Of a stretch of 35,929 nucleotides of DNA, positions 1,091 through 32,622 are shown in pieces. Location of the stretch: the IMG/VR virus record IMGVR_UViG_3300011591_000012, positions 1-35,929 of that record; one strand, written 5' to 3'. Numbering within the stretch: position 1 is the first letter of the stretch; each line of letters begins with the position of its first letter. The position numbers and the translations under genes were made by a program. The notes below the pieces were generated by a model. It did no database searches and was not told the DNA's origin. It worked only from the letters and a program-made list of their open reading frames with translations. The DNA is from a virus (taxonomy: Duplodnaviria; Heunggongvirae; Uroviricota; Caudoviricetes).

Positions 1091-2452
1091 ATGTTTAAAC
1101 CGGAACTCCTTTCCCCGGCGGGAACGCTGCAAAATATGCGTTACGCTTTCGCCTATGGTGCCGACGCCGTTTACGCGGGCCAGCCGCGCTACTCGCTGCG
1201 CGTGCGTAACAACGAATTCAACCACGAGAATCTTCAGCTCGGCATCAATGAAGCGCATGCCCTGGGCAAAAAATTCTACGTGGTGGTGAACATCGCGCCG
1301 CACAACGCCAAGCTGAAAACGTTCATTCGCGACCTGAAGCCGGTCGTGGAGATGGGGCCGGACGCGCTGATCATGTCGGACCCGGGTTTAATCATGCTGG
1401 TTCGGGAGAACTTCCCGGAGATGGACATTCACCTCTCGGTGCAGGCTAACGCCGTCAACTGGGCAACGGTGAAATTCTGGAAACAGATGGGGCTGACCCG
1501 CGTCATTCTGTCCCGCGAGCTGTCCCTCGAAGAGATCGAAGAGATCCGCACCCAGGTGCCGGATATGGAGATCGAAATCTTCGTTCACGGCGCGCTGTGC
1601 ATGGCCTACTCCGGCCGCTGCCTGCTCTCTGGCTACATCAACAAGCGTGACCCGAACCAGGGCACCTGCACCAACGCCTGCCGCTGGGAATATAACGTTC
1701 AGGAAGGCAAAGAAGATGACATCGGCAATATCGTGCACAAACACGAGCCGATCCCGGTCACCAACGTTGAGCCAACGCTGGGTATCGGCGCGCCTACCGA
1801 CAGCGTGTTTATGATCGAAGAAGCCAAACGTCCGGGCGAATACATGACCGCCTTCGAAGACGAGCATGGCACCTACATCATGAACTCCAAAGATCTGCGC
1901 GCCATCGCACACGTCGAGCGTTTAACCCAGATGGGCGTACACTCCCTGAAAATCGAAGGCCGCACCAAGTCTTACTACTACTGCGCCCGTACCGCACAGG
2001 TGTATCGCAAAGCCATCGACGATGCCGCCGCCGGTAAACCGTTCGACACTAGCCTGCTGGAAACGCTGGAAGGTCTGGCGCATCGCGGCTATACCGAAGG
2101 TTTCCTGCGTCGTCACACCCACGACGACTACCAGAACTACGAGCATGGCTACTCGATTTCCGAACGCCAGCAGTTTGTAGGCGACTTCACCGGCGAACGT
2201 AAAGGTCCGCTGGCCGCCGTCGCCGTAAAAAACAAATTCACTAAAGGCGACAGCCTGGAGCTGATGACGCCTCAGGGCAACATGAACTTCCGCCTGGAGC
2301 ACCTGGAAAACAAAAAAGGTGAGGCGATAGAGGTCGCTCCTGGCGACGGCCATGTGGTCTGGCTGCCGGTTCCTGAAGAGGTAGAGCTGGAGTTTGCACT
2401 GCTGATGCGTAATTTTGAAGGTGAAAATACCCGAAATCCACACGGCAAATAG
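1091..2452 (+). CDS. yegQ: Peptidase U32 family protein YegQ (TrhP, tRNA hydroxylation)
   Basis: 453-aa ORF; translation (MFKPELLSPAGTLQNMRYAFAYGADAVYAGQPRYSLR...) is recognised as E. coli YegQ; high-GC core-genome codon usage. Confidence 0.9.
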   Translation: MFKPELLSPAGTLQNMRYAFAYGADAVYAGQPRYSLRVRNNEFNHENLQLGINEAHALGKKFYVVVNIAPHNAKLKTFIRDLKPVVEMGPDALIMSDPGLIMLVRENFPEMDIHLSVQANAVNWATVKFWKQMGLTRVILSRELSLEEIEEIRTQVPDMEIEIFVHGALCMAYSGRCLLSGYINKRDPNQGTCTNACRWEYNVQEGKEDDIGNIVHKHEPIPVTNVEPTLGIGAPTDSVFMIEEAKRPGEYMTAFEDEHGTYIMNSKDLRAIAHVERLTQMGVHSLKIEGRTKSYYYCARTAQVYRKAIDDAAAGKPFDTSLLETLEGLAHRGYTEGFLRRHTHDDYQNYEHGYSISERQQFVGDFTGERKGPLAAVAVKNKFTKGDSLELMTPQGNMNFRLEHLENKKGEAIEVAPGDGHVVWLPVPEEVELEFALLMRNFEGENTRNPHGK

Positions 2453-2487
2453 TCAATCAACGGGATTTTTTCACGCTGGGATAATTC

Positions 2488-2530
2488 TTAGAATCGGATC
2501 ACATACCGCTTCGTTCAATACGGGTATTAT
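2488..2530 (+). promoter_or_regulatory. Putative cyaR promoter: CRP-like half-site TCACA (2499-2503) centred about -41 and -10 hexamer TATTAT (2525-2530)
   Basis: TATTAT lies 7 nt upstream of the inferred CyaR 5' end; TCACA half-site position fits a class II CRP promoter. CRP dependence of CyaR is established knowledge; the site itself is only a partial match. Confidence 0.4.
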
Positions 2531-2536
2531 CCCCCC

Positions 2537-2622
2537 GCTGAAAAACATAACCCATAAATGCTAGCTGTACCAGGAACCACCTCCTTAGCCTGCGTAATCT
2601 CCCTTACACGGGCTTATTTTTT
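2537..2622 (+). ncRNA. cyaR: CyaR (RyeE) small regulatory RNA
   Basis: Sequence GCTGAAAAACATAACCCATAAATGCTAGCTGTACCAGGAACCACCTCCTTAGCC...CCCTTACACGGGCTTATTTTTT recognised as CyaR, including the anti-SD-like CCTCCTTA segment and the terminator hairpin with U-tail. Confidence 0.8.
2596..2622. other. P2-type attachment core (attR junction), overlapping the 3' end of cyaR
   Basis: Plus strand reads AATCTCCCTTACACGGGCTTATTTTTT, the reverse complement of the 27-bp P2 att core as I recall it (AAAAAATAAGCCCGTGTAAGGGAGATT); it is immediately followed by ogr and the rest of the prophage. Confidence 0.6.
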
Positions 2623-2692
2623 ACGTACAACAAATTGAAATAAAAGGATTTATTTCTGGTCACGTCCACACATTGACCACATCGACAAAAAA

Positions 2693-2710
2693 GCCCCTCG
2701 ACTGAGGGGC
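2693..2710. terminator. Bidirectional rho-independent terminator hairpin between the att core and ogr
   Basis: Perfect 7-bp stem GCCCCTC/GAGGGGC with 4-nt loop, flanked by A6 upstream and TTTCTGTTTG downstream; on the minus strand it follows the ogr stop (2724) with a T-run. Confidence 0.6.
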
Positions 2711-2723
2711 TTTCTGTTTGTAA

Positions 2724-2942
2724 TTACATCCACATAATTTGCTGCCCTGACGGCAACGGGTGTGGCCTTACGGCGTGGACTTCTCCCGGCTTCACGATGT
2801 ATCGCTGTACCGACTCATAAGTGATGAACGTGGCGCTGCAATTCACGTTCTGACACTGGTGATAACGCTCTTTTGTCGTGTCAGTGATATAGCGGCTTGT
2901 ACGCGCATGTGCGGCATGCTGGCATAAAGGACAATGAAACAT
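2724..2942 (-). CDS. ogr: Late transcription activator Ogr (C4 zinc-finger)
   Basis: 72-aa product MFHCPLCQHAAHARTSRYITDTTKERYHQCQNVNCSATF... taken from the internal Met of the 93-aa ORF 2724..3005; CxxC...CxxxxC zinc-finger pattern. Confidence 0.9.
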   Translation of the reverse strand: MFHCPLCQHAAHARTSRYITDTTKERYHQCQNVNCSATFITYESVQRYIVKPGEVHAVRPHPLPSGQQIMWM

Positions 2943-3023
2943 CGCGAGCACCTCTTCCGGTTTTATTGATGGTGCCATTTTAGTTAATTTATCCTTATAA
3001 AACAAACAGATAAAATAAAAACA

Positions 3024-4187
3024 TCACTCATCATCTTCTGTTTCGTACTCCACATCAGAAAGCCTGACCTCAAGCTCTAAGGACGTCGTGAAGCCGCTAT
3101 TATTCAGAAAATGTGTCACCTTAGTGATTGTCCAGTCCTGCTCGTCTATGACGCGCTTAAAGCCTGACACTTTAACCGGTGTTTCCGTGTAAATATCTGC
3201 CCGACCGGTAGCCAGGCTGATGGAGAACTCCGCCACACCCCGTTGCAGTTTATCCCACTTCGCCTGAGCGGCGCGCATGGCCTGCGCTTTCGTGGCATAT
3301 ACCGTAGTCAGGGCAAAAACGTTGTCAGCCTCACCGGCCATGTATTCACCTTCGCGCGCTTCCGGTACTTTTGGCGCTTTCTTCTGCGTGACCGGTTTCG
3401 CTTTCGGGTGCTCCAGTGCGCGCAGGTGTTTTTCTTTCTTTTTGCGTTTCAGTTTTACCTTCTGCTTTTGCGGCTTCGGGTCTTTGGTGTGTAACCACTT
3501 TGCCGTTACGCCGGTGTAAGCTCCACGGTCAGCAATCGCAAAATGATGACGGTCGCCGTCGCTGCGGGTGATGGTAATCTGCGGGATTTTTTTACCGCTG
3601 GCCGTCACCCCCTGCCCCGCTTTGAGAAACAACAGTTTTCCCATTTTTACCGACACCTCACCGCCGTTGCGTTCTGCAAGACGGGTCAGGAATTTCGCAT
3701 CAGACTCCTGCGACTGGTCGATGTGCGGGATTTTAATTCCGGCCAGTGACGGAGCGACACTGGCTTCCAGCCTGTTACGGGAGGCTATCGCTTCAACAAT
3801 CGCACCGAGTGTGGTGTCATGCCAGGAGCCTTCCCGGCGGGAATTGAGCGTCCCGCGAAAATCTGCACTCCGGGCGCGGATGGTGACCACATCCGGCGCG
3901 CCCCGGTGTTCAACCTCATCAACGGTGAATTTCCCTTTGCATACCAGGGCAAAACCTTTCCAGCCGATATACACCGTCAGGACAGCGCCACGAACCGGTA
4001 GCCCGACCTGCCCGTCGGCATCGTTCAGTTCAATATCAAGCTGGTCAGCCTCAAAGCCCCGGTTATCCGTCAGGGTCATGCTCATCAGACGGTCGCTGAT
4101 ATTGCCGGTAATATCCCTGCTGTCGAGCATCAGCATGTAATCCGGCGTCAGCGTACTGCCTGCATCAAATGTCAGTGCATCCAGCAT
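3024..4187 (-). CDS. D: Tail protein D (late control gene D)
   Basis: 387-aa ORF, position and sequence consistent with P2 gpD; follows U and precedes ogr as in P2. Confidence 0.9.
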   Translation of the reverse strand: MLDALTFDAGSTLTPDYMLMLDSRDITGNISDRLMSMTLTDNRGFEADQLDIELNDADGQVGLPVRGAVLTVYIGWKGFALVCKGKFTVDEVEHRGAPDVVTIRARSADFRGTLNSRREGSWHDTTLGAIVEAIASRNRLEASVAPSLAGIKIPHIDQSQESDAKFLTRLAERNGGEVSVKMGKLLFLKAGQGVTASGKKIPQITITRSDGDRHHFAIADRGAYTGVTAKWLHTKDPKPQKQKVKLKRKKKEKHLRALEHPKAKPVTQKKAPKVPEAREGEYMAGEADNVFALTTVYATKAQAMRAAQAKWDKLQRGVAEFSISLATGRADIYTETPVKVSGFKRVIDEQDWTITKVTHFLNNSGFTTSLELEVRLSDVEYETEDDE

Positions 4188-8135: not shown

Positions 8136-9326
8136 TTAATTGCTGTTAACCGAGGTGACCAGATTTGCCAGGTATTTATCGGTAATACGCTGGCGCAGGG
8201 TCAGGTTTTCGAGAGGAGGCACCGGGGTATAGTCGTAGTCGATATACAGTTTTCCGGCCTTGAGGGTTTCCGCATCGTTGGATTCTTCGCTGAACCAGCA
8301 GGTCGCATCCACGATATAGCCGTTTGTTTTCAGCTCACGGAATTTGGCATTGATGCCGTCAACGATGTCGCGAATCAGCGTTGCGGTGATGGGCTTGTCC
8401 ACCGCCCACATGTGCGCCTCAGCCATCGTGTCGGCCAGCACCTGCGCGGTGCGGGTGTAGTTTTCAAAGAGGAACAGCGGGTCATCAGAGCAGGTACGGT
8501 TACCCCAGAAGCGGAAACCGTCGCGGCGAATCAGCGTTGTGACGCCAGACTCGTTCAACAGGTCAGCATCGGTGCCGGACTCCTGCAAATCCCAGAATAC
8601 AGATGCGCTGATGCCGGTAACACCGTTTACCCCGACGTTGGACAGCGTTTTATGCCAGCCCTGCTCCTGGTCGATTTTAGCGCGCAGACCCAGCGCACGG
8701 GCGGTGGCATACGCGGTGGCGGTGGTACTGGTGACCGTATCCCATGCGAGGAAATCCGGCCAGATGACCATCAGCTCACGCTGGCTGAAATTCTGGCGGT
8801 AGGCTTTCACCTCGGAAATGGTCTTACAGCCCCATGCGCTGATATATCCGAAAGCGCGCAGCTTCTGACAGACGGATGCTAGTGCAACAGCCACCTCTTT
8901 GGTATCCAGTCCCGGCACACCGAGAATACGCGGTTTAACACCGGTTACCGACTCCGCCGCCAGCAGGGCTTTCAGTCCGGTGTACTGACCGTTTTCGTCG
9001 GTGGTGCCGATGATATTGGAAACGGTCTGCGCAAGTTTCGTTTCCTCGTCGTCGCCGGTGCCGTCTTCCACACGCACGACAACGGTGACCGGTTTTGACT
9101 GGTCGGCGATGGCCTGCAACGATGCCGCCAGCGTGCCTTTTTTACCGGCCTTTGCAATTGCGCTCTGCACATTGGTAATCAACACCGGTTTATTGAGGGG
9201 GAAGGTTTCCGCATCCGCATCGCTGGCCGTGCAGACCATGCCGACAATGGCAGTGGATACGGTGGAAATGACGCGGGTGCCGTCGTTAATCTCCAGCACC
9301 TGCACGCCATGATGATAGTCACTCAT
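8136..9326 (-). CDS. FI: Contractile tail sheath protein FI
   Basis: Product MSDYHHGVQVLEINDGTRVISTV... from the internal ATG at 9324-9326 with GGAG RBS; the 447-aa ORF upstream extension is non-coding leader. Confidence 0.9.
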   Translation of the reverse strand: MSDYHHGVQVLEINDGTRVISTVSTAIVGMVCTASDADAETFPLNKPVLITNVQSAIAKAGKKGTLAASLQAIADQSKPVTVVVRVEDGTGDDEETKLAQTVSNIIGTTDENGQYTGLKALLAAESVTGVKPRILGVPGLDTKEVAVALASVCQKLRAFGYISAWGCKTISEVKAYRQNFSQRELMVIWPDFLAWDTVTSTTATAYATARALGLRAKIDQEQGWHKTLSNVGVNGVTGISASVFWDLQESGTDADLLNESGVTTLIRRDGFRFWGNRTCSDDPLFLFENYTRTAQVLADTMAEAHMWAVDKPITATLIRDIVDGINAKFRELKTNGYIVDATCWFSEESNDAETLKAGKLYIDYDYTPVPPLENLTLRQRITDKYLANLVTSVNSN

Positions 9327-9430
9327 CCGTTTAACTCCGTGGTTAATGGGTGCAACTATTTTCTGTTGTGCAGAGCATGAGACGCTATTTGACCTGGCTG
9401 GCCAGTGGATGAAACAACAGATAAAGAAAA
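9327..9430 (-). promoter_or_regulatory. Putative late (Ogr-dependent) promoter region for the FI-FII-E-T-U-D operon
   Basis: Non-coding leader between an upstream terminator and the FI start; I could not locate a clean TGT-N12-ACA activator site, so this is positional inference only. Confidence 0.3.
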
Positions 9431-9449
9431 GGCGGGCAATCAGCCCGCC
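9431..9449 (-). terminator. Rho-independent terminator (minus-strand orientation) upstream of the FI promoter
   Basis: 7-bp GC stem GGCGGGC/GCCCGCC with 5-nt loop; on the minus strand it is followed by TTTTCTTTAT. Confidence 0.5.
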
Positions 9450-9698
9450 AGCCTTGATTTGCACTCTCTCAATTTCCAACTGACAAAATACGTAGCCAAA
9501 ACGCTATCAAATCTGACAGCCTGCTTTGAGCGAGAAACAGACATGGATGGCATACAGTGAAAGTAGCCGCACAATGAGCATCACTGCAATTCTGAATTCA
9601 AGCTCTAATACTATTGAGACCGTATCATACAGTCACTCGCAAAAATTACTTTACCTGAGTGAAAAAATTGATTCCAAGCAAAATGAAAACTTGTAATT

Positions 9699-9720
9699 CA
9701 TTATTACATGCATAATAATG
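9699..9720. promoter_or_regulatory. 22-bp palindrome (8-bp perfect arms) about 105 bp upstream of the OLD-like gene; candidate operator
   Basis: CATTATTA-catgca-TAATAATG read directly from the sequence; AT-rich context so chance is possible. Confidence 0.2.
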
Positions 9721-9825
9721 AATAAAAACTTGAGCTATATAAACCAAAGTTGTTCCGAATAGTCCGTTGAGACATCACTCGAATTATAGGAATACAAGGT
9801 TTTATTTTTATAAGGAATCGCTCCC

Positions 9826-12090
9826 ATGGGTTTGCAAAGCATAAGAATAAAAAACTTACTATCATTTAATGATGTAATAATAAATTCCCTAGAGGATGTA
9901 AATTGCATTGTAGGGATGAATAATGTTGGCAAATCCAATCTTATGAAAATATTGAAATATTTTTACGACAAACTTGACGACATAAAAGTAATACCTCCTG
10001 ATTTTCATTCTAGTTATACTCCTTCAGGGTCAATAACATTGACTTATGATGTAACAAGAATAAAGAGAATTGTAATGAACCCTAATAACAATGGTCGCTT
10101 TCACAAGCATATTTATAACACTTTATTTAAGCCACAATCATTCATCCGAAAGCCGCAGAAATTCTGTCTTCCTTTCATATCTCCTTTGGGTTTCCAAAGA
10201 AAAAGCACTTATAGCATTACACTCACAATTTCTAAAGATGACTCCGTAACTTGGTCAATTAGCACACCAAATGCCCGGCATCTAATTAAAACTCTATTTC
10301 CTTTTTTCCATATTGAAACCAGACACATTGACTTATACGACTGGAATAGCATATGGAAAATGCTCAGCAGTATAAATTCCTTTAATTTCTCTGAAATAAA
10401 AAAAGAAGAACTCCTTGAGTTTTTGAATGAGAAAATATCAACTAAGCGGGGTAGTTACAAGAAGTATATAGAAAGAGTTGAAAATGTAATCCATACTAAA
10501 CCTTACACCTATAAAGATAAAGTCGTTAATTATCTAAAAATAGTTTTAGATGGCGATATCTTCATAAATAAAGGTGAAGAACTACATGTTCAGTCGGATG
10601 GCACGAACTCTCACAAATATCTTGAAATTATACTTAGCCTATTAATTTCATTAACAAGAACAGAATTTATCAATCCAATTATATATATTGATGAACCTGA
10701 AATTGGGCTACATCCAAAACTTAGCGAGAACTTTATTGAGAACATAAGCCTGACATATAAAAAGTATGATAAAACCCATGAGGAAATTGAGCCTGGAAAA
10801 TATTCAACACCATATCCAACTCTTATATTTAGCACTCATTCTCCGAGTTTACTAAAACTCACGCTAAAATCTTTCTTACATAAACAGCAGGTTTTGCATT
10901 TTTCAAAAGAACGTGACAACTCGACCAAAATTTCAAAATTAAACTCTAAATATAATGACATTAGATTTATAAATATGCTTAGCGATAATGAGGCCCGTCT
11001 ATTCTTTAGTGAATACATTCTATTTGTAGAGGGCGCCACAGAAGTTGAATTGTTTAGAAATTATAATCTGCAAAAGCTGTTTCCAGTACTTAAAAGGTTA
11101 GATGTGTATGATTGCGATGAAGTAATGTTGAAAAATATAAACCCCAGCTACTCAAATGCAGCCATCCCATTTCTAGTAGTAAAGGATATTGATCAGATTG
11201 CCGTTGTTGACTTCGAACATGAACAATTTAAATTTAATTCGAAAGGGAAATCAATTATTAATAAAATCATTAAGAGAGATAAACTACACTATTTTTCGAC
11301 ATACCAAAAACCTTTTCTTAACGCAGCAAAATTTCTTTTAAGCCAAGATGAAAGGAAAGTAACATTCAGTGAAAATGGCCTAAAATTCAGACACTTCAGT
11401 ATAGGCAGAGTTATAAGCGCAGTTAATTTTTTATCCTCTAAAGATAATGTTTATTATACTTCTACAACGATAGAAGGCTCATTGATCAATGAATTCTCTT
11501 TAGAGACATTCTCTTTATGGATCATTGACATAGTAATGAGAAGCTTTAATGTAAATAATAAAAACCCTGTAAAAATGATTAATGCTCTGCTGCAAAAATA
11601 CGATATTAAAACCCAATCAAAACAACTTTTTCCCAAAATACTTTCAAAATGTGAAACAAATCATAACCTACCATTGCGACACATGAGATTATTGAAAATC
11701 ATTAAAATTAGATATGCTAAAGAAATAATTGATGAGTTTAAAAAAACCATCCCCGACGTAAAAGACCAAGTTGCTATCTTGCGCCTTATTTTTAGTGGCA
11801 AAACAGAAACTCTTGTAAGTATAGAAATGCATTATAAAATTGATCAAAAACCGATACGGCAAGATATATTGGATTATATCAAAGCATTAAAGTCAGAAAA
11901 TTTCTCTTTTATGAGTTCTTACATAGGAAAGACTTCTGGATGGGTTACAAGCTTCATTGATTTTAGCCTTAATCATTATTCAGCCCTAGATAAAGAAAAT
12001 GTCGAAAAAAAATTCCGCTTGGCTTTTCCTGAAATTTCGCATATCATCGATCATGCTTCTTCTTCGATAGAAGCTGGAGGGCTCAAATGA
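9826..12090 (+). CDS. OLD-family nuclease: N-terminal ABC-type ATPase plus C-terminal Toprim domain
   Basis: 754 aa, low GC. Walker A GMNNVGKSN near the N-terminus; Walker B/D-loop IYIDEPEIGLHP; Toprim-like ILFVEGATEVE and VVKDIDQ (DxD) in the C-terminal half. Confidence 0.7.
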   Translation: MGLQSIRIKNLLSFNDVIINSLEDVNCIVGMNNVGKSNLMKILKYFYDKLDDIKVIPPDFHSSYTPSGSITLTYDVTRIKRIVMNPNNNGRFHKHIYNTLFKPQSFIRKPQKFCLPFISPLGFQRKSTYSITLTISKDDSVTWSISTPNARHLIKTLFPFFHIETRHIDLYDWNSIWKMLSSINSFNFSEIKKEELLEFLNEKISTKRGSYKKYIERVENVIHTKPYTYKDKVVNYLKIVLDGDIFINKGEELHVQSDGTNSHKYLEIILSLLISLTRTEFINPIIYIDEPEIGLHPKLSENFIENISLTYKKYDKTHEEIEPGKYSTPYPTLIFSTHSPSLLKLTLKSFLHKQQVLHFSKERDNSTKISKLNSKYNDIRFINMLSDNEARLFFSEYILFVEGATEVELFRNYNLQKLFPVLKRLDVYDCDEVMLKNINPSYSNAAIPFLVVKDIDQIAVVDFEHEQFKFNSKGKSIINKIIKRDKLHYFSTYQKPFLNAAKFLLSQDERKVTFSENGLKFRHFSIGRVISAVNFLSSKDNVYYTSTTIEGSLINEFSLETFSLWIIDIVMRSFNVNNKNPVKMINALLQKYDIKTQSKQLFPKILSKCETNHNLPLRHMRLLKIIKIRYAKEIIDEFKKTIPDVKDQVAILRLIFSGKTETLVSIEMHYKIDQKPIRQDILDYIKALKSENFSFMSSYIGKTSGWVTSFIDFSLNHYSALDKENVEKKFRLAFPEISHIIDHASSSIEAGGLK

Positions 12091-12201
12091 GCTGACGCAT
12101 GCCGTCACTTGCTCCAGCAAACACTAGCTCGGATTGTCTTGCGTCCGCTAAGCCGCTTTAAGCCTCACGGGGTGTAAAGATGTTATTGGTATCGAAGAGG
12201 A
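12058..12201 (+). ncRNA. Candidate structured ncRNA (retron msr/msd-like) between the OLD-like and RT genes
   Basis: 12-nt inverted repeat with one mismatch: TCTTCTTCGATA (12058-12069) versus TATCGAAGAGGA (12190-12201). Enclosed region is GC-rich against AT-rich flanks and has local stems GCTGGAG(12073-12079)/CTCCAGC(12111-12117) and TGACG(12093-12097)/CGTCA(12103-12107). The second repeat sits just upstream of the RT start. Confidence 0.25.
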
Positions 12202-12210
12202 AGCTTTTAC

Positions 12211-13308
12211 ATGAAACATAAAATTAATAAAATTAACAATGATTTTTATAAAAATTTTTATCTAAGAGAAACATTCTCCGATGATATTATTATGACTCAC
12301 GGAGTCCCTGAGATTTCCAATGACGATTATAAAAGCATTTCATTAAAGAATAGATTATGTTTCACTATAAGAAAAAGCTCCCCGCATAAAAAAATACAAG
12401 AAAGACTTATAAAAAATTTCCTAGTAAAAGTTCCTCTTAGCTCACCTGCAATTGCCTATCGTAAAAAATTAAACTATTTGAATTTTCTAGAACCTCATAT
12501 CCATGGTGAGAACTTTTGTCGAATTGACTTATGTAATTTTTTTCATAACATAAACTATAACTTTGCAAGGGAGTGTTTCAAATCCTACTTTGAAGATGAA
12601 TATCTGGTAAATAAAAAAATCAAAGTTATTGATGCATTTTTAAATAGTTTATCTATTGAGATTGTAGTCAACAATAAAAAGAAAAAAATATTTCCAATGG
12701 GATTCGCCACATCACCTTTCATATCCAATATAATTTTCAGAAAGTTAGATATTTTAATTAAAAGTTTGTGTGACAAAAGAAGCATCATTTACACTCGTTA
12801 TGCTGATGATATGCTTTTTTCGAGCTCCGGGAAAGACAAACTTCTTGGAAGTGAACATTTTGACAACGAGATATCAACTATTGTCAATACGGCAGGACTG
12901 TCCCTCAACAAACATAAAAAAATATTTAAGAAAGGCATAATCTCACTAAACGGCTATGTAATAGAAAATAAAAATGGAGGGGGAGAGAGAGGGAGTATAA
13001 GAATATCTAATGGAAAAATGTATTTAATACGGAAAGCACTAGATAAATTTAAAAAGGGATATTCTAAAGAGCATATTTGCAAAAAAGTATTTTCTGTTAA
13101 ATCACCAACTGTCAAGTATAATAACAATGCAGATCAGTTTGTAACGGATTTTTATAATTCACAATTCTCTAATAAGTTAGCTGGTTATCGTTCATATTTA
13201 ATATCATTAGTAAAATTTAATGATAAATTCAGATGTTTTCACGAAAACGAAATCACCAAATACTCAGTGATTATTGATGAAATTTCTAATGCACTGCTAA
13301 AACCCTAG
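12211..13308 (+). CDS. Reverse transcriptase, small retron/Abi-like (fingers-palm only)
   Basis: 365 aa, low GC. RT motifs read in the translation: motif A-like FCRIDLCNFFHNI, motif B-like FPMGFATSPFISNIIF, motif C YTRYADDMLFS (YADD box), motif D-like GLSLNKHK. GAGGA RBS 8 nt upstream. Confidence 0.75.
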   Translation: MKHKINKINNDFYKNFYLRETFSDDIIMTHGVPEISNDDYKSISLKNRLCFTIRKSSPHKKIQERLIKNFLVKVPLSSPAIAYRKKLNYLNFLEPHIHGENFCRIDLCNFFHNINYNFARECFKSYFEDEYLVNKKIKVIDAFLNSLSIEIVVNNKKKKIFPMGFATSPFISNIIFRKLDILIKSLCDKRSIIYTRYADDMLFSSSGKDKLLGSEHFDNEISTIVNTAGLSLNKHKKIFKKGIISLNGYVIENKNGGGERGSIRISNGKMYLIRKALDKFKKGYSKEHICKKVFSVKSPTVKYNNNADQFVTDFYNSQFSNKLAGYRSYLISLVKFNDKFRCFHENEITKYSVIIDEISNALLKP

Positions 13309-13730
13309 CCTTAGAAAGTTAATGTTTTGGCCCTAAAGCAAGGGCCTTAATAGTAAAAATAGTTACCAGCATAAGTATTCCTTCAACTAATCACACAAAT
13401 TAACGTTAGCAACGTTCCCTTTTTACACCGTCTGAGCACTAAGCTGTCGGTCATTCTGGTCTACCATACTATTATACGTAACATCCAAGAGTGTTCCTGC
13501 AAACGGTCGTAGAAAATGCGGGCTTCGCCATTTTCTGGCCGACGCCGGTCTCGTCGAGTTCTTCTGACTGTTCAAGTGCAAATGCGCCTGTAGGTATCCC
13601 TACAAAAGAAACCATCAACTTTTAGATAGTATCTGGCACTCCAACTCCCGCTGTTGACTCGGAGCGGACTGTCAGATTAGGCTTTACTCTGTACCATAGA
13701 TACGTTAGCTCACTCCAGAGATCATACAAC

Positions 13731-14258
13731 TTATTGCGGCATGTCCGGCCATTCAGGATTTGAAGGGTCCACACGACTGACCAGAACGCTGTAGCGTTCC
13801 CATGCATCCAGTCGACTGCGCTCCTCACCTGTTGCCATATTCAGCCTGACAGCGCGCTCCAGCGGCAAAATTACGGATTCAGCTTCGGAAAGCAAAGCTG
13901 CCTTATGTAATTCCGCTAGTTTCTGCTGTTCGTCTGCCGTATAAATCCGCTTAATCACGGCACCATCCTTAAACATCCATTTACCTGAGTCATCAGCACG
14001 CCGGTTGGCAGTAATATCAGGAACCTCAACGACGCTAAAACCTTCAGGATTAAGCGTTGAAGCATCTCTGGTGATGGCGACAATAATATTATTTTCATCG
14101 TAAACAATCTTTATTGTGTCTGGCTGAAAATTACTTACTTCCTCATACCAGTTTTTTCCGTCTTCGGACCATAACCAGATAACATCAAAATTCTTTGTTA
14201 GCTGATATTGCTCTTTTGTTTTTGGATTACCTGACTTAATGTTCTTTAAATGCTGCAT
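13731..14258 (-). CDS. G: Tail fibre assembly protein G
   Basis: 175-aa ORF immediately downstream of H; position and size as P2 gpG; lower GC than the rest of the tail cluster. Confidence 0.85.
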
Positions 14259-14261
14259 TAC

Positions 14262-16139
14262 TTACACCTGCGCAACGTTATACCATGTGCCATTGATGTA
14301 TTTTTGTATCGGCCTGAAGATGGCCTCATCATCGCCATCTACTTCACCAATGATTCTTAATCCGGTAATCGTGTGTCCGGCTTTTTCATAACGACCACCT
14401 CGCGCCATCAATTGAACAACTCGCGTACCCAGGCGAACATCTTTCACATAGCGGGAATCAAAATTCCCCCAGTTGCTGGGTTGCATCTGACCGTTAACAG
14501 CAAATATTACCGAGTTATCTGTATTTCGCTGGCTATAGAAATGCCATCCGGACTCATCGCCTAACTCTGCAACCACTGGACGGTTGGAAGCACCCCATAA
14601 ATTAAAGGTAATATTCTTCGTGGATGTGTTAGAGCTGGATAGCGAGAACTTTTTACTATCCCCTGCCTGAATATTTTTAAAAGCAATAGCCACTCCATTC
14701 TGAAAACGGAATACACGCTGACTGTTAGCATAAACATCAAGAATACCGTCTCCATTCTGTTTAAATCCGGTATCATTATCACCAAGGACAATAGAGCTAC
14801 CACCTAGTGCATTCGTCGTACCAACTCCAAGACAGCCATTAATGACGGCATTAACAAGAATATTTAGTGCATCCCATTTCAGCGTCATCAGGTCTTTTGT
14901 TGTGGTACTCTGGCGGCTTCTCCATTTGAAATATTCATTGCCGTTATCCCCCGTTTCAAACCACATGTATGAATCAGCGTCACCATCGGCATCATTTTTA
15001 AATCCAATCTTCGCCCAGTCAGTATTTCGAATCCAGGCAAGGATTGAGTCGTTTTCAAAAGTAATCCCGCCGGACAAGGTATCGCCATTCTTTTGCACCG
15101 CGTTCCTGGCCCTGTTTACCGTTTCCTGCAAACCGAGGTATTCGATAACGGCAGCAATGGTCGCTTTAGCCAGAATATCCCGCCCGACTTTTGTCAGGGT
15201 TGCCAAACTGGCAACATCATTCCCCGTAAAATACGGAAAGCTGTCTGCCGCAGTAGCAAGCCCCGCCAGCGCCGTCAGAGTGGCATCTTTCGGTTGCTTA
15301 CCCGCAAGCGCATTAGTCATGGAGGTAGCAAAATTCGGGTCATTGCCCAGCGCCGCCGCCAGCTCGTTCAGCGTATTCAGTGCGTCAGGCGACGAGTCTA
15401 CAATGGCGGCAATCGCGGCCATAACGAAAGCCGTGTTTGCGATCTGAGTATTATTCGTTCCCTGTCGCGCAGTTGGCGTCGTTGGCGTTCCGGTCAGTGC
15501 AGGGCTGTTTAATGGCGCTTTTTTGTTCGCTTCATCCATTACCGTCTTAACAGCTTTTGGTGTTGCGGCGAGCGTTTCAGACGTGCTGTTGGTCGCACTG
15601 CTTAACTGAGTAAAACCTTTTGCGGTCAGCGAGGCGTCAGGGTGACGTCGTGACTGTTCATGTTCTGCAATTTTGTCATCAACGTAATCCTGCGTTGCCA
15701 TCACCGTTGTGGTGTCAATGGTCAGCGCCACTGAGGCCACACTGCTGACGATGATGACCATGCGGCAGGTCTGCGAACGCCCTGAGCCTTCGGCAAGGGC
15801 AGGCTTATAACTTTCGGCCATGTTCGCCACGGCAATTAACGTTCCCGCATCATCGTACAGGCCAAGCTCACGCATCCAGAAACCGCCCACCTCCGGCGGA
15901 ATAACCAGCTCTGCGATAATATAATTACTGTTTCGTTTGTCCTGGCTGATTTTGTTCAGCGTATGTCGCCAGACTTCGTGGATAAGCCCGGTCTGTCCGG
16001 CATCCGGGACAGGCAATTTACCACCGCCATCCCCGACGGCCATCGTGGTAATGTTGACCTTCCGCCCTCCCGGTGCGGTTGCCGCTGCCAGCTTTGCTGC
16101 ACCGGCAGTGGTGATAACGGTTTTGAATTTTGTGCTCAT
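14262..16139 (-). CDS. H: Tail fibre protein H
   Basis: 625-aa ORF; conserved P2-like N-terminus (MSTKFKTVITTAGAAKLAAATAPGGRKVNITTMAVGDGGG...) and a lower-GC C-terminal part. Confidence 0.9.
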   Translation of the reverse strand: MSTKFKTVITTAGAAKLAAATAPGGRKVNITTMAVGDGGGKLPVPDAGQTGLIHEVWRHTLNKISQDKRNSNYIIAELVIPPEVGGFWMRELGLYDDAGTLIAVANMAESYKPALAEGSGRSQTCRMVIIVSSVASVALTIDTTTVMATQDYVDDKIAEHEQSRRHPDASLTAKGFTQLSSATNSTSETLAATPKAVKTVMDEANKKAPLNSPALTGTPTTPTARQGTNNTQIANTAFVMAAIAAIVDSSPDALNTLNELAAALGNDPNFATSMTNALAGKQPKDATLTALAGLATAADSFPYFTGNDVASLATLTKVGRDILAKATIAAVIEYLGLQETVNRARNAVQKNGDTLSGGITFENDSILAWIRNTDWAKIGFKNDADGDADSYMWFETGDNGNEYFKWRSRQSTTTKDLMTLKWDALNILVNAVINGCLGVGTTNALGGSSIVLGDNDTGFKQNGDGILDVYANSQRVFRFQNGVAIAFKNIQAGDSKKFSLSSSNTSTKNITFNLWGASNRPVVAELGDESGWHFYSQRNTDNSVIFAVNGQMQPSNWGNFDSRYVKDVRLGTRVVQLMARGGRYEKAGHTITGLRIIGEVDGDDEAIFRPIQKYINGTWYNVAQV

Positions 16140-25005: not shown

Positions 25006-26778
25006 ATGACCATCACCACAGACACCACTCTTTTGCACGACCCGCGTCGTCAGGCGGCGCTGCTGTACTGGCAGGGGTTTTCCGTGCCGCAGATTGCCGC
25101 CATGTTGCAGATGAAACGCCCGACGGTGCAGAGCTGGAAACAGCGCGACGGCTGGGACAGCGTTGCCCCCATCAGCCGTGTCGAAATGAGTCTGGAAGCG
25201 CGGCTGACCCAGCTCATTATCAAACCGCAGAAAACCGGCGGTGACTTCAAGGAAATTGACCTGCTCGGACGCCAGATTGAACGACTGGCACGGGTAAACC
25301 GCTACAACCAGACCGGCAACGAGGCAGACCTTAATCCGAACATCGCTAACCGCAACAAAGGCGGGCGACGCAAACCGAAAAAGAATTTTTTCAGCGACGA
25401 GGCTATCGAAAAGCTGGAGCAGATTTTCTTTGAGCAGTCTTTCGAATATCAGTTGCACTGGTATCGCGCCGGGCTTGAGCACCGCATCCGCGATATCCTG
25501 AAATCCCGCCAGATTGGCGCGACGTTTTATTTTTCCCGCGAGGCGCTGCTGCGCGCCCTGAAAACCGGTCATAACCAGATTTTTCTGTCGGCCAGTAAAA
25601 CGCAGGCGTATGTGTTCCGCGAATACATCATCGCCTTTGCCCGGCTGGTTGACGTTGACCTGACCGGTGACCCGATTGCCCTGGGCAATAACGGCGCAAA
25701 ACTGATTTTTCTCGGCACCAACTCCAACACCGCACAGAGCCATAACGGCGACCTGTACGTCGACGAGATTTTCTGGATCCCGAATTTTCAGGTACTGCGT
25801 AAGGTGGCATCAGGTATGGCCTCACAGAGTCACCTGCGCTCGACCTATTTCTCCACCCCGTCCACGCTGGCGCACGACGCCTACCCGTTCTGGTCGGGGG
25901 AACTGTTTAACCGGGGACGCGCCAGCGCCGCTGAACGCGTGGAAATCGACGTCAGTCATAACGCCCTTGCCGGTGGGCTTCTCTGTGCGGACGGCCAGTG
26001 GCGGCAGATTGTCACCATTGAGGACGCGCTGAAAGGCGGCTGCACGCTGTTCGACATTGAGCAGCTCAAACGTGAAAACAGCGCCGACGATTTTAAAAAC
26101 CTGTTCATGTGTGAATTTGTTGACGACAAGGCGTCGGTGTTCCCGTTCGAGGAGCTGCAACGCTGCATGGTCGACACGCTGGAAGAATGGGAAGACTATG
26201 CGCCGTTTGCCGCCAATCCGTTCGGCTCCCGCCCGGTATGGATTGGTTACGACCCGTCACACCGTGGCGACAGCGCCGGATGCGTGGTACTGGCACCGCC
26301 GGTGGTGGCCGGTGGCAAATTCAGAATACTTGAGCGTCACCAGTGGAAAGGCATGGACTTTGCCACTCAGGCTGAATCCATCCGCAAACTCACTGAAAAA
26401 TACAACGTCGAATACATCGGAATTGATGCCACCGGCCTCGGTGTCGGCGTGTTCCAGCTCGTGCGCTCGTTCTATCCCGCCGCGCGCGATATCCGCTACA
26501 CACCGGAAATGAAAACCGCAATGGTGCTCAAGGCAAAAGACGTTATCCGTCGTGGCTGTCTGGAATATGACGTCAGCGCCACCGACATCACCAGCTCGTT
26601 TATGGCTATCCGCAAGACCATGACCAGCAGCGGACGCAGCGCCACCTATGAGGCCAGCCGCAGCGAGGAAGCCAGCCACGCCGACCTCGCCTGGGCGACC
26701 ATGCACGCCCTGTTAAATGAGCCACTCACCGCCGGTATCAGCACCTCGCTGACATCCACCATTCTGGAGTTTTACTGA
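25006..26778 (+). CDS. P: Terminase large (ATPase) subunit P
   Basis: 590-aa product from ATG 25006 (GAGG RBS); the ORF track start at 24976 is a TTG extension. Confidence 0.9.
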   Translation: MTITTDTTLLHDPRRQAALLYWQGFSVPQIAAMLQMKRPTVQSWKQRDGWDSVAPISRVEMSLEARLTQLIIKPQKTGGDFKEIDLLGRQIERLARVNRYNQTGNEADLNPNIANRNKGGRRKPKKNFFSDEAIEKLEQIFFEQSFEYQLHWYRAGLEHRIRDILKSRQIGATFYFSREALLRALKTGHNQIFLSASKTQAYVFREYIIAFARLVDVDLTGDPIALGNNGAKLIFLGTNSNTAQSHNGDLYVDEIFWIPNFQVLRKVASGMASQSHLRSTYFSTPSTLAHDAYPFWSGELFNRGRASAAERVEIDVSHNALAGGLLCADGQWRQIVTIEDALKGGCTLFDIEQLKRENSADDFKNLFMCEFVDDKASVFPFEELQRCMVDTLEEWEDYAPFAANPFGSRPVWIGYDPSHRGDSAGCVVLAPPVVAGGKFRILERHQWKGMDFATQAESIRKLTEKYNVEYIGIDATGLGVGVFQLVRSFYPAARDIRYTPEMKTAMVLKAKDVIRRGCLEYDVSATDITSSFMAIRKTMTSSGRSATYEASRSEEASHADLAWATMHALLNEPLTAGISTSLTSTILEFY

Positions 26779-27812
26779 TGAGCAAGAAAAAAGGGAAAAC
26801 ACCGCAACCTGCGGCAAAAAAAATGACCGCCAGCGCCCCGAAAATGGAGGCATTCACCTTTGGTGAGCCGGTGCCGGTACTCGACCGCCGTGACATTCTG
26901 GATTACGTCGAGTGCATCAGTAACGGCAGATGGTATGAGCCACCGGTCAGCTTTACCGGTCTGGCAAAAAGCCTGCGTGCTGCCGTACATCACAGCTCAC
27001 CGATTTACGTCAAACGTAATATTCTGGCTTCAACGTTTATTCCGCACCCGTGGCTTTCCCAGCAGGATTTCAGCCGCTTTGTGCTGGATTTTCTGGTGTT
27101 CGGTAATGCGTTTCTGGAAAAGCGTTACAGCACCACCGGTAAGGTCATCAGACTGGAAACCTCACCGGCAAAATATACCCGCCGTGGTGTGGAAGAGGAT
27201 GTTTACTGGTGGGTGCCGTCCTTCAACGAGCCGACAGCCTTCGCGCCCGGCTCCGTGTTTCACCTGCTGGAGCCCGATATTAATCAGGAGCTGTACGGCC
27301 TGCCGGAATATCTGAGCGCCCTTAACTCTGCCTGGCTGAATGAGTCGGCCACGCTGTTCCGCCGCAAGTATTACGAAAACGGCGCACATGCCGGATACAT
27401 CATGTACGTCACTGATGCCGTGCAGGATCGCAACGATATCGAAATGCTTCGCGAAAACATGGTGAAGTCGAAAGGCCGCAACAACTTTAAAAACCTGTTT
27501 CTCTATGCCCCGCAGGGGAAAGCCGACGGCATTAAAATTATCCCGCTCAGTGAAGTGGCAACGAAGGACGATTTTTTTAATATCAAAAAAGCCAGCGCCG
27601 CTGACCTGCTGGACGCGCACCGCATCCCCTTTCAGTTGATGGGCGGCAAGCCGGAGAACGTCGGGTCGCTGGGCGATATTGAGAAAGTGGCAAAGGTCTT
27701 TGTCCGCAATGAGCTTATCCCGTTACAGGACAGGATCCGCGAGATAAACGGCTGGCTCGGTCAGGAGGTCATCCGCTTTAAAAACTACTCACTGGACACT
27801 GACAACGGCTGA
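26778..27812 (+). CDS. Q: Portal protein Q
   Basis: 344-aa ORF overlapping the P stop; size and position of P2 gpQ. Confidence 0.9.
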   Translation: MSKKKGKTPQPAAKKMTASAPKMEAFTFGEPVPVLDRRDILDYVECISNGRWYEPPVSFTGLAKSLRAAVHHSSPIYVKRNILASTFIPHPWLSQQDFSRFVLDFLVFGNAFLEKRYSTTGKVIRLETSPAKYTRRGVEEDVYWWVPSFNEPTAFAPGSVFHLLEPDINQELYGLPEYLSALNSAWLNESATLFRRKYYENGAHAGYIMYVTDAVQDRNDIEMLRENMVKSKGRNNFKNLFLYAPQGKADGIKIIPLSEVATKDDFFNIKKASAADLLDAHRIPFQLMGGKPENVGSLGDIEKVAKVFVRNELIPLQDRIREINGWLGQEVIRFKNYSLDTDNG

Positions 27813-28128: not shown

Positions 28129-28548
28129 CTAATCATCTTCTAAAGGTGGAATTTTGATGCCACTAATTAGCAGTACTTTCCGGTATGCCTCAAAAATAAT
28201 GTTGTGTGTTTTTTGTAAATCATCGAGCATTTTTTGCCGTCCTGCTGGGGTATCTTTGGCAAAATTATGAGCGCGAAAAAAATCATGTGCCAAGTAGTTT
28301 CTGGCTTTAAGAGCATCTGACACATACTCCAGTGTATCAGCATCCTCCACCATCCTAGACTTCAGTGCGTAATTCAATTTACCCAGCGTGTATTTATCCA
28401 TTTCTAAAAACTGTTTTTTCAGCGACTGTATATCTTTCCCCTGACTCATATCATACTCAGTGATAACATTTATCAACTCAGTCTCCAGTAATTGAGCTGC
28501 TTCCGAAGCATAACCAAATTTCCAATAAACCGTATCAAGCGTCACCAT
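28129..28548 (-). CDS. Small alpha-helical protein with HEPN-like Rx4HxF motif (candidate RNase or partner protein)
   Basis: 139 aa, low GC; motif ALKARNYLAHDFF resembles the HEPN Rx4-6H signature; GGGGA RBS; 91 bp downstream of the HNH gene on the same strand. Confidence 0.45.
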   Translation of the reverse strand: MVTLDTVYWKFGYASEAAQLLETELINVITEYDMSQGKDIQSLKKQFLEMDKYTLGKLNYALKSRMVEDADTLEYVSDALKARNYLAHDFFRAHNFAKDTPAGRQKMLDDLQKTHNIIFEAYRKVLLISGIKIPPLEDD

Positions 28549-28639
28549 ATAATCTATTCCCCATATAACAAATCACACCCCAAATTAAATCATAATACAT
28601 AATTAAATCTAACGCCTCGCTGCACCAGAAGAAGTCATG

Positions 28640-29971
28640 TTAACGCTTATCATGGAACTTTTTCCATTTTGTCATCAACTTTCCAGCATCAAGTTCTACA
28701 TGATGCGGTTGTAGAGTTTTACCCTCAAACATAGTTTTGTGGATACAATTAATAGAAAAATGAACCGTTAAGTCCTCTGGATTAATCCCCATTAATCCTT
28801 TATCAAACATTCGGTGTAAACTTACTTCAAGTAACAGGCCATTAGATGTGTTATTATTTGCTGATTCTGTTATTGCTTCAATATGTGCGGCTTCCAATAT
28901 CCCCTCTGGCAATGGATAGCCAGTAATAGCACATCTGCCATTGAAGTTATCCCAAACACGGCGTTTGAAATCAGCTTGATCTCCAGCATGACGGACTTTG
29001 TGAGTAACCTCGACTGTTCGTCCTGTAGCACAGGTATCGTTTGCGGCCTTGAAAGGATTAGTTAGACTTTCATTAATGGCTATATCCGTTCCATCCATGA
29101 TAAGAGATATTTCATTATTGGGTTCGGATGATGTTAATGGACTTATGTACTGATTGCTTAAAAAAGTCATACTAGATTCTTCATCAGTCGCGAGTTTCCA
29201 CGCTTCTGATTGTGTCATTGTTAGCAATGCCGTTTGATAAACTTGCTTATTAAAATAACGTTTATCTTTCTTGTCACTCCCCATATTAATAGTACTAGAT
29301 TTAATCGGAAGTGTTTTATCACCAATTAGTAGATCACGTATTTCTACAGTCTCTTCTAAGGTATCAATAGGAGCTACTATAGGGTTAGTCAACGGGTTAT
29401 CTACATGATCTACGTGGTTGTGTCGTAAATGCCACTCTATAGCACTATCTTTTATATGTATCTCGCAGACAGGGCATACAATAAGCCCCATAGATGTTAC
29501 AGGTAGCTTTTTGCCACCGATTAAGCGTAATGTATTTGCATTCTGGTTATGTACTTTCTTTTGGTTCTGTGTCAGTACACTACGCTTAGCCTCTAAACGG
29601 GTCGGAATCTTAGCAAGATTAAGCGATTTACGGCTCTCTTGTCTCTCAAGATCATAGATCCGAATCCCTGCTCCAGTTTTGATTTTTGTCCACATAGAGA
29701 TAGAACTAAGGAATTTATGTCCATGTACTTTTTCATAATCAGCATAAGCTTGCAAAGTAGCAGTGGAACTATCTAATCCTTTTTTACGGAGTGCTGTATA
29801 TTGCTGAAAAAGATTAATAGCATGAGCTGTAATAGAGCGCCTATTCTCTATAATTTGCGTTTTTTTTGCTGCTTGTTCTGCTTGCAATGCTTTTTGTTCA
29901 GGGGTAAGCGACTTCTTTTTGGCTTTCTTGGTTCTTTTCTTACTCAAAGTTTTCTTACTGTTATTGTTCAT
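28640..29971 (-). CDS. HNH-family nuclease with lysine-rich N-terminus and C2H2-like zinc-binding motif
   Basis: 443 aa, low GC. C-terminal segment CAITGYPLPEGILEAAHIEAI...NGLLLEVSLHRMFDKGLMGINPEDLTVHFS matches the HNH_2-type pattern. Central CPVCEIHIKDSAIEWHLRHNH; N-terminal KKTLSKKRTKKAKKK basic stretch. Confidence 0.6.
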   Translation of the reverse strand: MNNNSKKTLSKKRTKKAKKKSLTPEQKALQAEQAAKKTQIIENRRSITAHAINLFQQYTALRKKGLDSSTATLQAYADYEKVHGHKFLSSISMWTKIKTGAGIRIYDLERQESRKSLNLAKIPTRLEAKRSVLTQNQKKVHNQNANTLRLIGGKKLPVTSMGLIVCPVCEIHIKDSAIEWHLRHNHVDHVDNPLTNPIVAPIDTLEETVEIRDLLIGDKTLPIKSSTINMGSDKKDKRYFNKQVYQTALLTMTQSEAWKLATDEESSMTFLSNQYISPLTSSEPNNEISLIMDGTDIAINESLTNPFKAANDTCATGRTVEVTHKVRHAGDQADFKRRVWDNFNGRCAITGYPLPEGILEAAHIEAITESANNNTSNGLLLEVSLHRMFDKGLMGINPEDLTVHFSINCIHKTMFEGKTLQPHHVELDAGKLMTKWKKFHDKR

Positions 29972-32357: not shown

Positions 32358-32622
32358 ATGAGCCAAAAGCCTCTGAACAACGCTTGCTGAGTTGCTCAAC
32401 CTGCGCGTTTAAATCAGCAAAAGACTTTGCGCTTCCGGTCAGAATATCGTGATGCATCAGGCCGGAAACGAGCTGGCTTAATTTCGGGTAATAACCAACC
32501 ACCGCCAGCCATTCCTGACCGGCGTTTTTACCGCTTTCCGCTCTCTTTTTCTCGTGGAGAATAAACTGAAAGCTGTCACTGGTAACGACATAACGTTCGC
32601 CAATTTCAATACGAATACTCAT
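32347..32622 (-). CDS. Hypothetical early-operon protein
   Basis: 91-aa ORF between the zinc-finger gene and A, overlapping neighbours by a few nt; no family recognised. Confidence 0.5.
   Translation of the reverse strand: MSIRIEIGERYVVTSDSFQFILHEKKRAESGKNAGQEWLAVVGYYPKLSQLVSGLMHHDILTGSAKSFADLNAQVEQLSKRCSEAFGSYGR

Follow-up and report, generated by a model that had tools for sequence, protein, structure and literature searches.

The closest described relative of the element reported here is Retron-Eco8, a type I-B2 retron of Escherichia coli 200499 (PDB 9lbq, 9p4j, 23or and others), whose locus is ordered as effector, non-coding RNA (ncRNA) and reverse transcriptase (RT) (PMC13402713). Cryo-electron microscopy and genetic studies of Eco8 have shown abortive infection that depends on the RT, the ncRNA and the nuclease, the assembly of a 4:4:4 complex, and activation by the phage protein (SSB) that binds single-stranded DNA; they also report that mutation of E402 or D450/D452 in the OLD nuclease abolishes defence. 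The DNA part (msdDNA) of its multicopy single-stranded DNA (msDNA) carries two stem-loops, reported as unique to Eco8. Subtype I-B2 is defined by two Toprim motifs of the effector, EGxxE (motif IV) and DxD (motif V) (Mestre et al., 2020), and one of its members, taken from that work, was included by Khan et al. in “An experimental census of retrons” (PMC10849725) as “Retron Terminal 749” (hereafter, Mestre-749), from E. coli KTE233 and RT clade 3. Here, we analyse an OLD-RT cassette located in a stretch of viral DNA of 35,929 nucleotides (positions 1 to 35,929 of the IMG/VR record IMGVR_UViG_3300011591_000012, Caudoviricetes), referred to as a whole as the window. Our results make it very likely that this cassette is a complete retron of type I-B2, belonging to the Retron-Eco8 family and catalogued as Mestre-749, which a P2-like prophage carries as a moron in its G-FI (Z/fun) hotspot. 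The cassette is already known, since its system type, ncRNA, RT-DNA, RefSeq annotation and hotspot have all been published; as the mechanism of Eco8 is published as well, the value of the locus as a discovery is small.

The OLD-family effector and the reverse transcriptase

An earlier note, made from the sequence alone, had described a 754-amino acid OLD-like protein and a 365-amino acid RT within a low-GC insert between the P2-like genes FI and G, and had likened the pair, as a likely anti-phage system, to retrons whose effector is of the OLD type (type I-B). The open reading frames (ORFs), the motifs and the GC content were all confirmed, and the resemblance is borne out by the PADLOC I-B models and by full-length matches to Eco8. 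The effector gene (9826-12090, + strand) encodes an OLD-family (class 3) ABC-ATPase and Toprim nuclease of 754 amino acids, as assigned by PADLOC, PDB and RefSeq, and GMNNVGKSN, IYIDEPEIGLHP, ILFVEGATEVE and VVKDIDQ are all found in its translation. The protein matches the PADLOC model ATPase-Toprim_I-B over its full length (1.6e-210) and the PDB entry “Retron Eco8 OLD nuclease” over residues 1-750 (3e-227), with 50.8% global identity to Eco8 OLD. Pfam recognises AAA_15 and AAA_21, and the Toprim nuclease core (amino acids 393-456; 11002-11193, + strand) matches OLD-like_TOPRIM with an E-value of 0.007, under the gathering score, while being homologous to the solved Toprim of Eco8 OLD, as expected if the C-terminal half of the protein is a Toprim domain.

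The key residues of the effector are the Walker A K36, the Walker B D289/E290, the Toprim motif IV EGATE at 402-406 (with E406) and the motif V D454-I-D456, where E406 and D454/D456 correspond to E402 and D450/D452 of Eco8 OLD. By its EGATE (EGxxE) and DxD motifs, the effector therefore falls into subtype I-B2 as defined by Mestre et al. (2020). The residues of Eco8 OLD that stack on the msdDNA, F92 and H95, are also kept. In RefSeq, the identical 754-amino acid protein is named “retron Eco8 family effector endonuclease”, and a full-text literature search for the RefSeq accessions WP_001547470 and WP_023304001 retrieved no papers.

The RT gene (12211-13308, + strand; 365 amino acids) was identified with the PADLOC RT_I-B model, the PDB Eco8 RT and Pfam RVT_1, and its translation contains RYADD. 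It matches RT_I-B with an E-value of 2.7e-106, the best 25 PADLOC RT matches being all retron models, and the PDB entry “Retron Eco8 reverse transcriptase” over residues 6-363 (6.5e-88), with 41.1% global identity. Its score is 353 bits on one of the PADLOC RT_I-B models, 92 on the other and 87 on RT_I-A; with these models, the placement of the RT among retrons or UG/Abi clades falls on retron I-B. The catalytic residues are conserved when the protein is properly aligned to Eco8 RT: D106, PMG 162-164 and YADD 197-200 align with D107, PMG163-165 and YADD198-201, and LNG is found at 246-248. Together with the effector, all residues whose mutation abolishes Eco8 defence are thus kept (K36, D289/E290, E406 and D454xD456 in OLD; D106, PMG and YADD in the RT). 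The RT belongs to an enterobacterial clade, with 71-99% identity among its members and at most 44% to any other RT, Eco8 included.

The three components lie on one strand in the order OLD (9826-12090), ncRNA (12053-12206) and RT (12211-13308). The earlier note had regarded the position of the nuclease gene before the RT as a departure from the retron architecture, but this is the canonical I-B order, found in Eco8 and in homologous loci. From reference genomes of Proteobacteria and Firmicutes, we fetched 80 RT-homologous loci, 75 of which encode an OLD homologue directly upstream of the RT and in the same orientation, so that the two genes are indeed kept together. Among the five exceptions, four end at a contig edge just upstream of the RT, and in the fifth (L077) the match is limited to the C-terminal half of the RT. 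The OLD-RT spacer measures 120 nucleotides in the window and 119 in L082, an Eco8 contig, whose RT is one residue off the PDB sequence.

The msr/msd ncRNA

The earlier note had also stated that no msDNA locus is annotated. This is correct for the annotation, as RefSeq carries no RNA gene at the retron locus, but not in substance: a retron ncRNA (msr-msd) of 154 nucleotides is found at 12053-12206 (+ strand), as indicated by alignment to the Eco8 ncRNA, its fold, a covariance model and a census entry. It shares the last 38 nucleotides of the effector ORF and finishes 4 nucleotides ahead of the RT start codon. A 15-nucleotide inverted repeat (12055-12069 and 12190-12204), with 14 Watson-Crick pairs and one G-U pair and with each arm flanked by a G, encloses 120 nucleotides over the OLD stop codon and the spacer. 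The 161-nucleotide stretch folds with -58.7 kcal/mol (z = -3.6).

For comparison, we aligned ten ncRNA sequences, namely those of the window, seven close relatives, Eco8 and a Pantoea locus. The window ncRNA aligns end to end with that of Eco8, and the 5' inverted repeat IRa2 (GCTTCTTCTTCGATA; 12055-12069, + strand), which pairs with 12190-12204, is invariant in all ten sequences, as is the G that follows it (GCTTCTTCTTCGATA-G). This G, at 12070 (+ strand) just 3' of IRa2, is the predicted branching (priming) G, homologous to rG18 of Eco8. The msr, or RNA part of the msDNA, would then span 12070-12127 (+ strand; 58 nucleotides, two stem-loops), as mapped through the alignment from rG18-rG81 of Eco8, and the msd template 12119-12188 (+ strand), whose reverse complement is a 70-nucleotide msdDNA, CAATAACATCTTTACACCCCGTGAGGCTTAAAGCGGCTTAGCGGACGCAAGACAATCCGAGCTAGTGTTT. 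On the 3' side, the opposing G (12189) and the 3' inverted repeat IRa1 (TATCGAAGAGGAAGC; 12190-12204) were located by the inverted-repeat search and the Eco8 alignment (together 12189-12204, + strand). When the Eco8 locus was numbered from its published branching G18, every published landmark was reproduced, both in the RNA (RSLa A28-U45, RSLb A46-U61, RNA-DNA duplex A73-C78) and in the msdDNA (C1...T75, DSLa C11-G34, DSLb C38-G61). Therefore, the transfer of coordinates to the window is validated.

The consensus structure obtained with RNAalifold recovers the retron ncRNA fold with its inverted repeats, and a covariance model built from the ten sequences matches the window with 185.7 bits. 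The same model places the element at the OLD/RT junction, on the + strand, in about 27 proteobacterial loci. In 23 of these loci, 93.4% of the cells are paired and 38 of the 45 pairs show compensatory changes, in an alignment that was fitted to the structure of the model. The msr helices 2-4 all covary, and the covariation score (0.524) compares with 0.201 in shuffles, where 0 of 500 reach 0.524, and with at most 0.10 when the partners are slid. Weak matches of the model on the minus strand (E ~1e-3) are the reverse complement of the true matches, owing to hairpin symmetry, and were left out of the pair counts.

The predicted element can be compared directly with Mestre-749 (PMC10849725). The ncRNA printed for Mestre-749 equals that of the window save for two gaps of one base each in the PDF as read by machine; one of these gaps is contradicted by the RT-DNA given in the same entry. 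The sequenced 70-nucleotide RT-DNA of Mestre-749 (PMC10849725, supplementary file 3) is the exact reverse complement of 12119-12188, and the 70-nucleotide msdDNA had been predicted from the Eco8 numbering before this entry was found. As ncRNA, RT-DNA, species and subtype are the same, there is probably no difference between the two, and the window retron appears to be the same element as Mestre-749, the identity of the RT being deduced from the shared ncRNA and the E. coli origin. A contig with the exact RT at about 90 kb (L096) might correspond to the source of the Mestre-749 RT, fig|1181777.3.peg.78. In the census, the RT and ncRNA of Mestre-749 yielded 0.1855x the RT-DNA of Eco1 (polyacrylamide gel electrophoresis), 0.50x its bacterial editing and 1.12x its phage editing. 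Our coordinates are exact ones for an unannotated ncRNA of a kind still missed by genome annotation pipelines.

The 5' end of the ncRNA also has a coding role. The conserved peptide ASSSIEA at the C-terminus of the effector is encoded by IRa2 together with the branching G, and the effector stop codon TGA (12088-12090) falls within the loop of the first msr stem-loop. The DNA of this overlap is invariant even between OLD proteins that are only 51% identical, which argues for a dual RNA and protein constraint on 12053-12090. In the 3' end of the effector gene, there is also a low-confidence candidate sigma-70 promoter for the ncRNA and RT (TTGGCT, 17 nucleotides, TATCAT; 12019-12047, + strand; 9/12 consensus match), ending 6 nucleotides ahead of the ncRNA. 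A TATnnT box is present 6-8 nucleotides upstream of the ncRNA in 21 of the 23 loci, with the sequence TATAAT in Eco8 and Pantoea; its bases also encode a conserved Ile-Ile, so that conservation at the protein level could explain the box. We hypothesise from these sequence features that an internal promoter may drive the ncRNA and RT. It seems doubtful, in turn, that the overlap reflects an undescribed regulatory design in a clade that also differs functionally from Eco8 in its sensing or in the phages that it excludes.

Proposed mechanism and alternative explanations

An Eco8-like mechanism is proposed because of the full-length homology of both proteins and the conservation of the catalytic and msDNA-contact residues (F92/H95). 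The RT (12211-13308) would recognise the ncRNA (12053-12206) and prime on the 2'-OH of G12070, a branch position given by homology to Eco8, and would then copy the template from 12188 down to 12119 into the 70-nucleotide msdDNA. The RT and ncRNA of the Mestre-749 sequence do yield a 70-nucleotide RT-DNA in E. coli (PMC10849725). By analogy with Eco8, the RT, the msDNA and the OLD nuclease would form an autoinhibited 4:4:4 complex, from which inhibition would be released upon binding of the msdDNA by the SSB of an infecting phage, with the substrate channel becoming wider. The Toprim nuclease could then degrade phage and host DNA, the infected cell dying and the lysogen population being protected (abortive infection). 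The anti-phage function and the SSB trigger of the window retron are thus probable properties, extended from Eco8 by homology. A tblastn search of the window with the E. coli SSB gave no match, which rules out only an SSB of the E. coli type and not other SSB folds.

At the level of known systems, the likeness to Retron-Eco8 includes the gene order, the spacer of ~120 nucleotides, the full-length homology of the class 3 OLD and the RT, the identical IRa2 and branching G, the homologous msr/msd architecture and the retention of all essential residues. In contrast, the msdDNA has 75 nucleotides in Eco8 and 70 in the window, and the msr 64 and 58. Retrons I-B1 and I-A (Retron-Eco4/Eco7, with Septu-like PtuAB effectors) also combine a retron RT with a nuclease effector containing an ABC-ATPase, but I-B1 has clade 1 RTs and the Toprim motif EDxxL, instead of the EGATE (EGxxE) of the window, and I-A has a separate HNH nuclease. 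Retron-Eco2/Ec67 (I-C) similarly uses a Toprim nuclease, although fused to the RT and without an ATPase, whereas that of the window is a separate ATPase-Toprim protein; the RT matches Ec67 with only 9e-5. The stand-alone OLD nucleases (P2 Old, Gabija GajA, PARIS AriA) share the ABC-ATPase and Toprim organisation, but act without RT or msDNA. An intact RT of the retron clade, an OLD-like effector with EGxxE and DxD, the effector-ncRNA-RT layout and an msr/msd ncRNA bounded by inverted repeats, which characterise type I-B2, are all found in the cassette.

Several observations weigh against a simple equation of the cassette with a functioning Eco8 system. The RT is only 41% identical to that of Eco8, the first msr stem-loop (RSLa) is 6 nucleotides shorter and the second msd hairpin (DSLb) has another sequence and length; Y483 of Eco8 OLD is replaced by T492, and F51 of Eco8 RT by C50, with F51 adjacent. 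These differences in sequence, stem-loops and residues imply that the geometry of the complex and its trigger could differ. Folded as single-stranded DNA, the 70-nucleotide msdDNA reaches only -4.9 kcal/mol (z = +0.6) and its minimum-energy structure contains a DSLb-like hairpin only, while the Eco8 msdDNA forms both hairpins with the same DNA folding (-8.7 kcal/mol); the DSLa stem CTTTA/TAAAG is kept in sequence in the window msdDNA. The Rfam scan of 9000-14300, with E up to 10, gave only chance-level eukaryotic or small RNA matches and no retron family. Over 9400-13760, a sigma-70 scan found 18 promoter-like sites where 19.4 are expected, so that no promoter can be called from the consensus alone, and a terminator scan of the same region found no convincing + strand terminator after the RT. 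Finally, the census left out accessory genes, and hence the OLD protein and the defence phenotype of Mestre-749 (PMC10849725).

Some of these differences could indicate that the cassette is the same retron with a trigger or activation other than that of Eco8, for example through the action of a phage nuclease, methylase or recombinase on the msDNA, the diverged msd hairpin and msr stem-loop setting a different phage specificity. The identities to Eco8 (41% for the RT, 51% for OLD), the gap within the RT family (71-99% in the clade and at most 44% to the rest), and the differences in RSLa, DSLb and msdDNA folding are all in line with this explanation, and retron specificity depends on the RT-DNA sequence according to the census (PMC10849725). 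Nevertheless, the msd segments that contact the protein in Eco8 are kept (ssDa, and DSLa with the equivalents of A15/T30), as are F92 and H95 of OLD, and no data favour another trigger. The binding of single-stranded DNA by SSB is, moreover, largely independent of sequence, and we regard a different trigger as possible but somewhat improbable. That the cassette is instead an inactive relic, a passenger without current function, is much less likely still. Fragmented matches in a Pectobacterium locus, a metagenomic OLD cut to 576 amino acids and the scarcity of the cassette among complete E. coli genomes (2 of 5426) are what a relic might show, but both ORFs of the window are full length, every catalytic residue and the ncRNA are intact, the identical RT occurs in 522 assembly blocks with the same P2 context in the 24 contigs read, and the RT and ncRNA pair is active in E. 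coli (census).

The earlier note had left the choice between a retron variant and a distinct RT-OLD module, and neither description holds, as the cassette is a standard, catalogued retron. A two-gene RT-OLD module that makes no msDNA would agree with the RefSeq record, which has no RNA gene at the locus, and with the lack of an Rfam match; it is nonetheless extremely unlikely in view of the conserved and covarying msr/msd, with inverted repeats and branching G, at the gene junction. Moreover, RT-DNA of the exact window sequence was made and sequenced for Mestre-749, and these data refute such a module unless the census entry is mislabelled. A defence RT of UG/Abi type (such as the Abi-P2 of P2-like phages) or a group II intron RT beside a stand-alone OLD or Gabija-like nuclease can practically be set aside. 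A T5-blocking RT in the variable locus of P2-like coliphages is described in papers citing Odegrip et al. (2006), and the effector also matches the GajA, AriA and P2 Old models (1e-12 to 1e-17). However, with the top 25 PADLOC RT matches all being retrons, the best non-retron structure, Drt2, reaches just 3e-4 over 59 residues, and membership of the RT among Abi-P2 or the DRTs was rejected as it groups with retron models. Pfam finds neither maturase nor endonuclease domains in the RT, against a group II intron. Among the known OLD classes, the E-value of the I-B effector model is better than those of GajA and Old by almost 200 orders of magnitude, and membership in the stand-alone OLD, GajA or AriA groups was rejected on this score (1.6e-210) and on the adjacent and co-conserved RT and ncRNA. 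Compared with all these alternatives, an Eco8-family type I-B2 retron is the best-fitting identity of the cassette, and it offers a ready comparator to Eco8 for asking how the msDNA sequence sets phage specificity.

Genomic context and distribution of the cassette

The P2-like prophage contained in the window is complete and has integrase, gpA, portal and tail genes. Blastn against phage L-413C and the GenBank record “P2-EC48 proviral Z-region” shows P2 backbone similarity stopping at 9536-9538 and restarting at 13642-13662, and the GC content drops from ~0.55-0.59 in the tail genes to ~0.27-0.35 over 9550-13350. The insert proposed in the earlier note is therefore real, although by these blastn edges it measures ~4.1 kb (9539-13641, no strand assigned) rather than 3.8 kb. 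On one side lies the tail sheath gene FI (8136-9326, - strand), recognised from RefSeq at the identical locus, gpFI in L-413C and the Pfam sheath domains of homologous contigs; RefSeq gives it 396 amino acids, and the 447-amino acid ORF listed for the window is an upstream TTG extension. On the other side lies the tail fibre assembly gene G (13731-14258, - strand; RefSeq of the identical locus, L-413C and homologous contigs). To L-413C, the flanks show 95% identity on the FI side and 86% on the G side, and to the P2-EC48 “Z-region” record ~90%; the FI-G gap of both contains unrelated cargo. The retron cassette is thus a variable insert of the kind that defines cargo of the P2 G-FI (Z/fun) hotspot.

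This hotspot is itself well known. The fun-containing locus was reported as a second defence-enriched P2 locus (Vassallo 2022) and, in the iLund4u preprint (2024), which cites Nilsson 2004, as one of two well-characterised P2 hotspots; Rousset (2022) analysed the gpA-gpQ hotspot, the site of old and tin, and not G-FI, and P2 itself carries old in that other hotspot. Finding a known defence system at such a site is therefore to be expected. Of 5426 complete E. coli genomes, only 2 contain the cassette, whereas 378 have the hotspot flanks around different cargo. In an assembly collection, the exact RT was found in 522 blocks, and all 24 contigs that were read show the sheath-[OLD-RT]-G context, this version of the retron being fixed in the Z/fun slot of P2-like prophages. 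The cassette is accordingly a well-delimited natural example of how a type I-B2 retron reaches a host through a P2-like prophage. One metagenomic copy (L098, JGI metagenome 3300014664, 2150-3880) has its OLD called at 576 amino acids (N-terminally shortened) and an intact RT, and is otherwise an identical copy in the P2 context.

Relatives of the cassette, with 74-91% DNA identity, occur in other mobile contexts, and the cassette-bearing loci of Serratia, Proteus, Morganella, Providencia and others align solely inside the cargo by blastn. The module common to the non-P2 relatives corresponds to 9787-13364, and the closest relative (91% identity) aligns over 9528-13428. The existence of such close relatives in other mobile contexts suggests that the module moves as a unit. 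The Serratia relative is chromosomal, between ars and nrd (nrdDG) genes, those of Proteus are in prophages, adjoining a lambda-like gpJ tail-tip gene, that of Morganella is beside an integrase/excisionase, and another is in an island with CbtA/CbeA. The relatives L083, L084/L085, L086 and L090 keep OLD-ncRNA-RT with identical gene lengths and the 120-nucleotide spacer. In Pectobacterium sp. PL152 (L022, 600-4113), the ncRNA has a perfect score (185.8 bits), but tblastn recovers OLD and RT in several fragments only, a pattern suggestive of frameshifted or decaying protein genes. In the I-B2 loci of Firmicutes (L029-L081), the OLD-RT synteny is kept, the OLD and RT matches lying much further apart (a gap of roughly 400-1400 nucleotides). 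No ncRNA is detected in L029-L081 with the enterobacterial covariance model, a limit of the model’s reach and not evidence of absence; the ncRNAs of these loci may be longer or placed differently.

Among the 5426 complete E. coli genomes, the edges of the cargo (9539-9800 and 13365-13641) match the two strains that bear the cassette and nothing else; they might be a promoter, a terminator or remnants of earlier cargo. Between G and FI, only one strong hairpin resembling an intrinsic terminator occurs on the tail-gene strand, at 9431-9449 (- strand; GGCGGGC...GCCCGCC and then a T run), to the FI side of the cargo. Therefore, late transcription from G may cross the whole retron cassette in antisense.

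Elsewhere in the window, an ORF of 312 amino acids (1-939, + strand; GC 0.37), without Pfam or PADLOC match, lies outside the prophage beside a peptidase U32 gene. It begins at the first base of the window, and its true start may be further upstream. The gpQ-gpA hotspot, the position of old/tin, is occupied at 28129-29971 (- strand), between the portal gene (26778-27812) and gpA (30081-32399), by an insert with a GC content of 0.37-0.40. Of its two ORFs, one, of 139 amino acids, has no Pfam or PADLOC match, and the other, of 443 amino acids, ends in a C-terminal HNH_2 domain (Pfam 6.6e-11; PADLOC “HNH” 2e-11). This insert may be a second defence cargo of the prophage.

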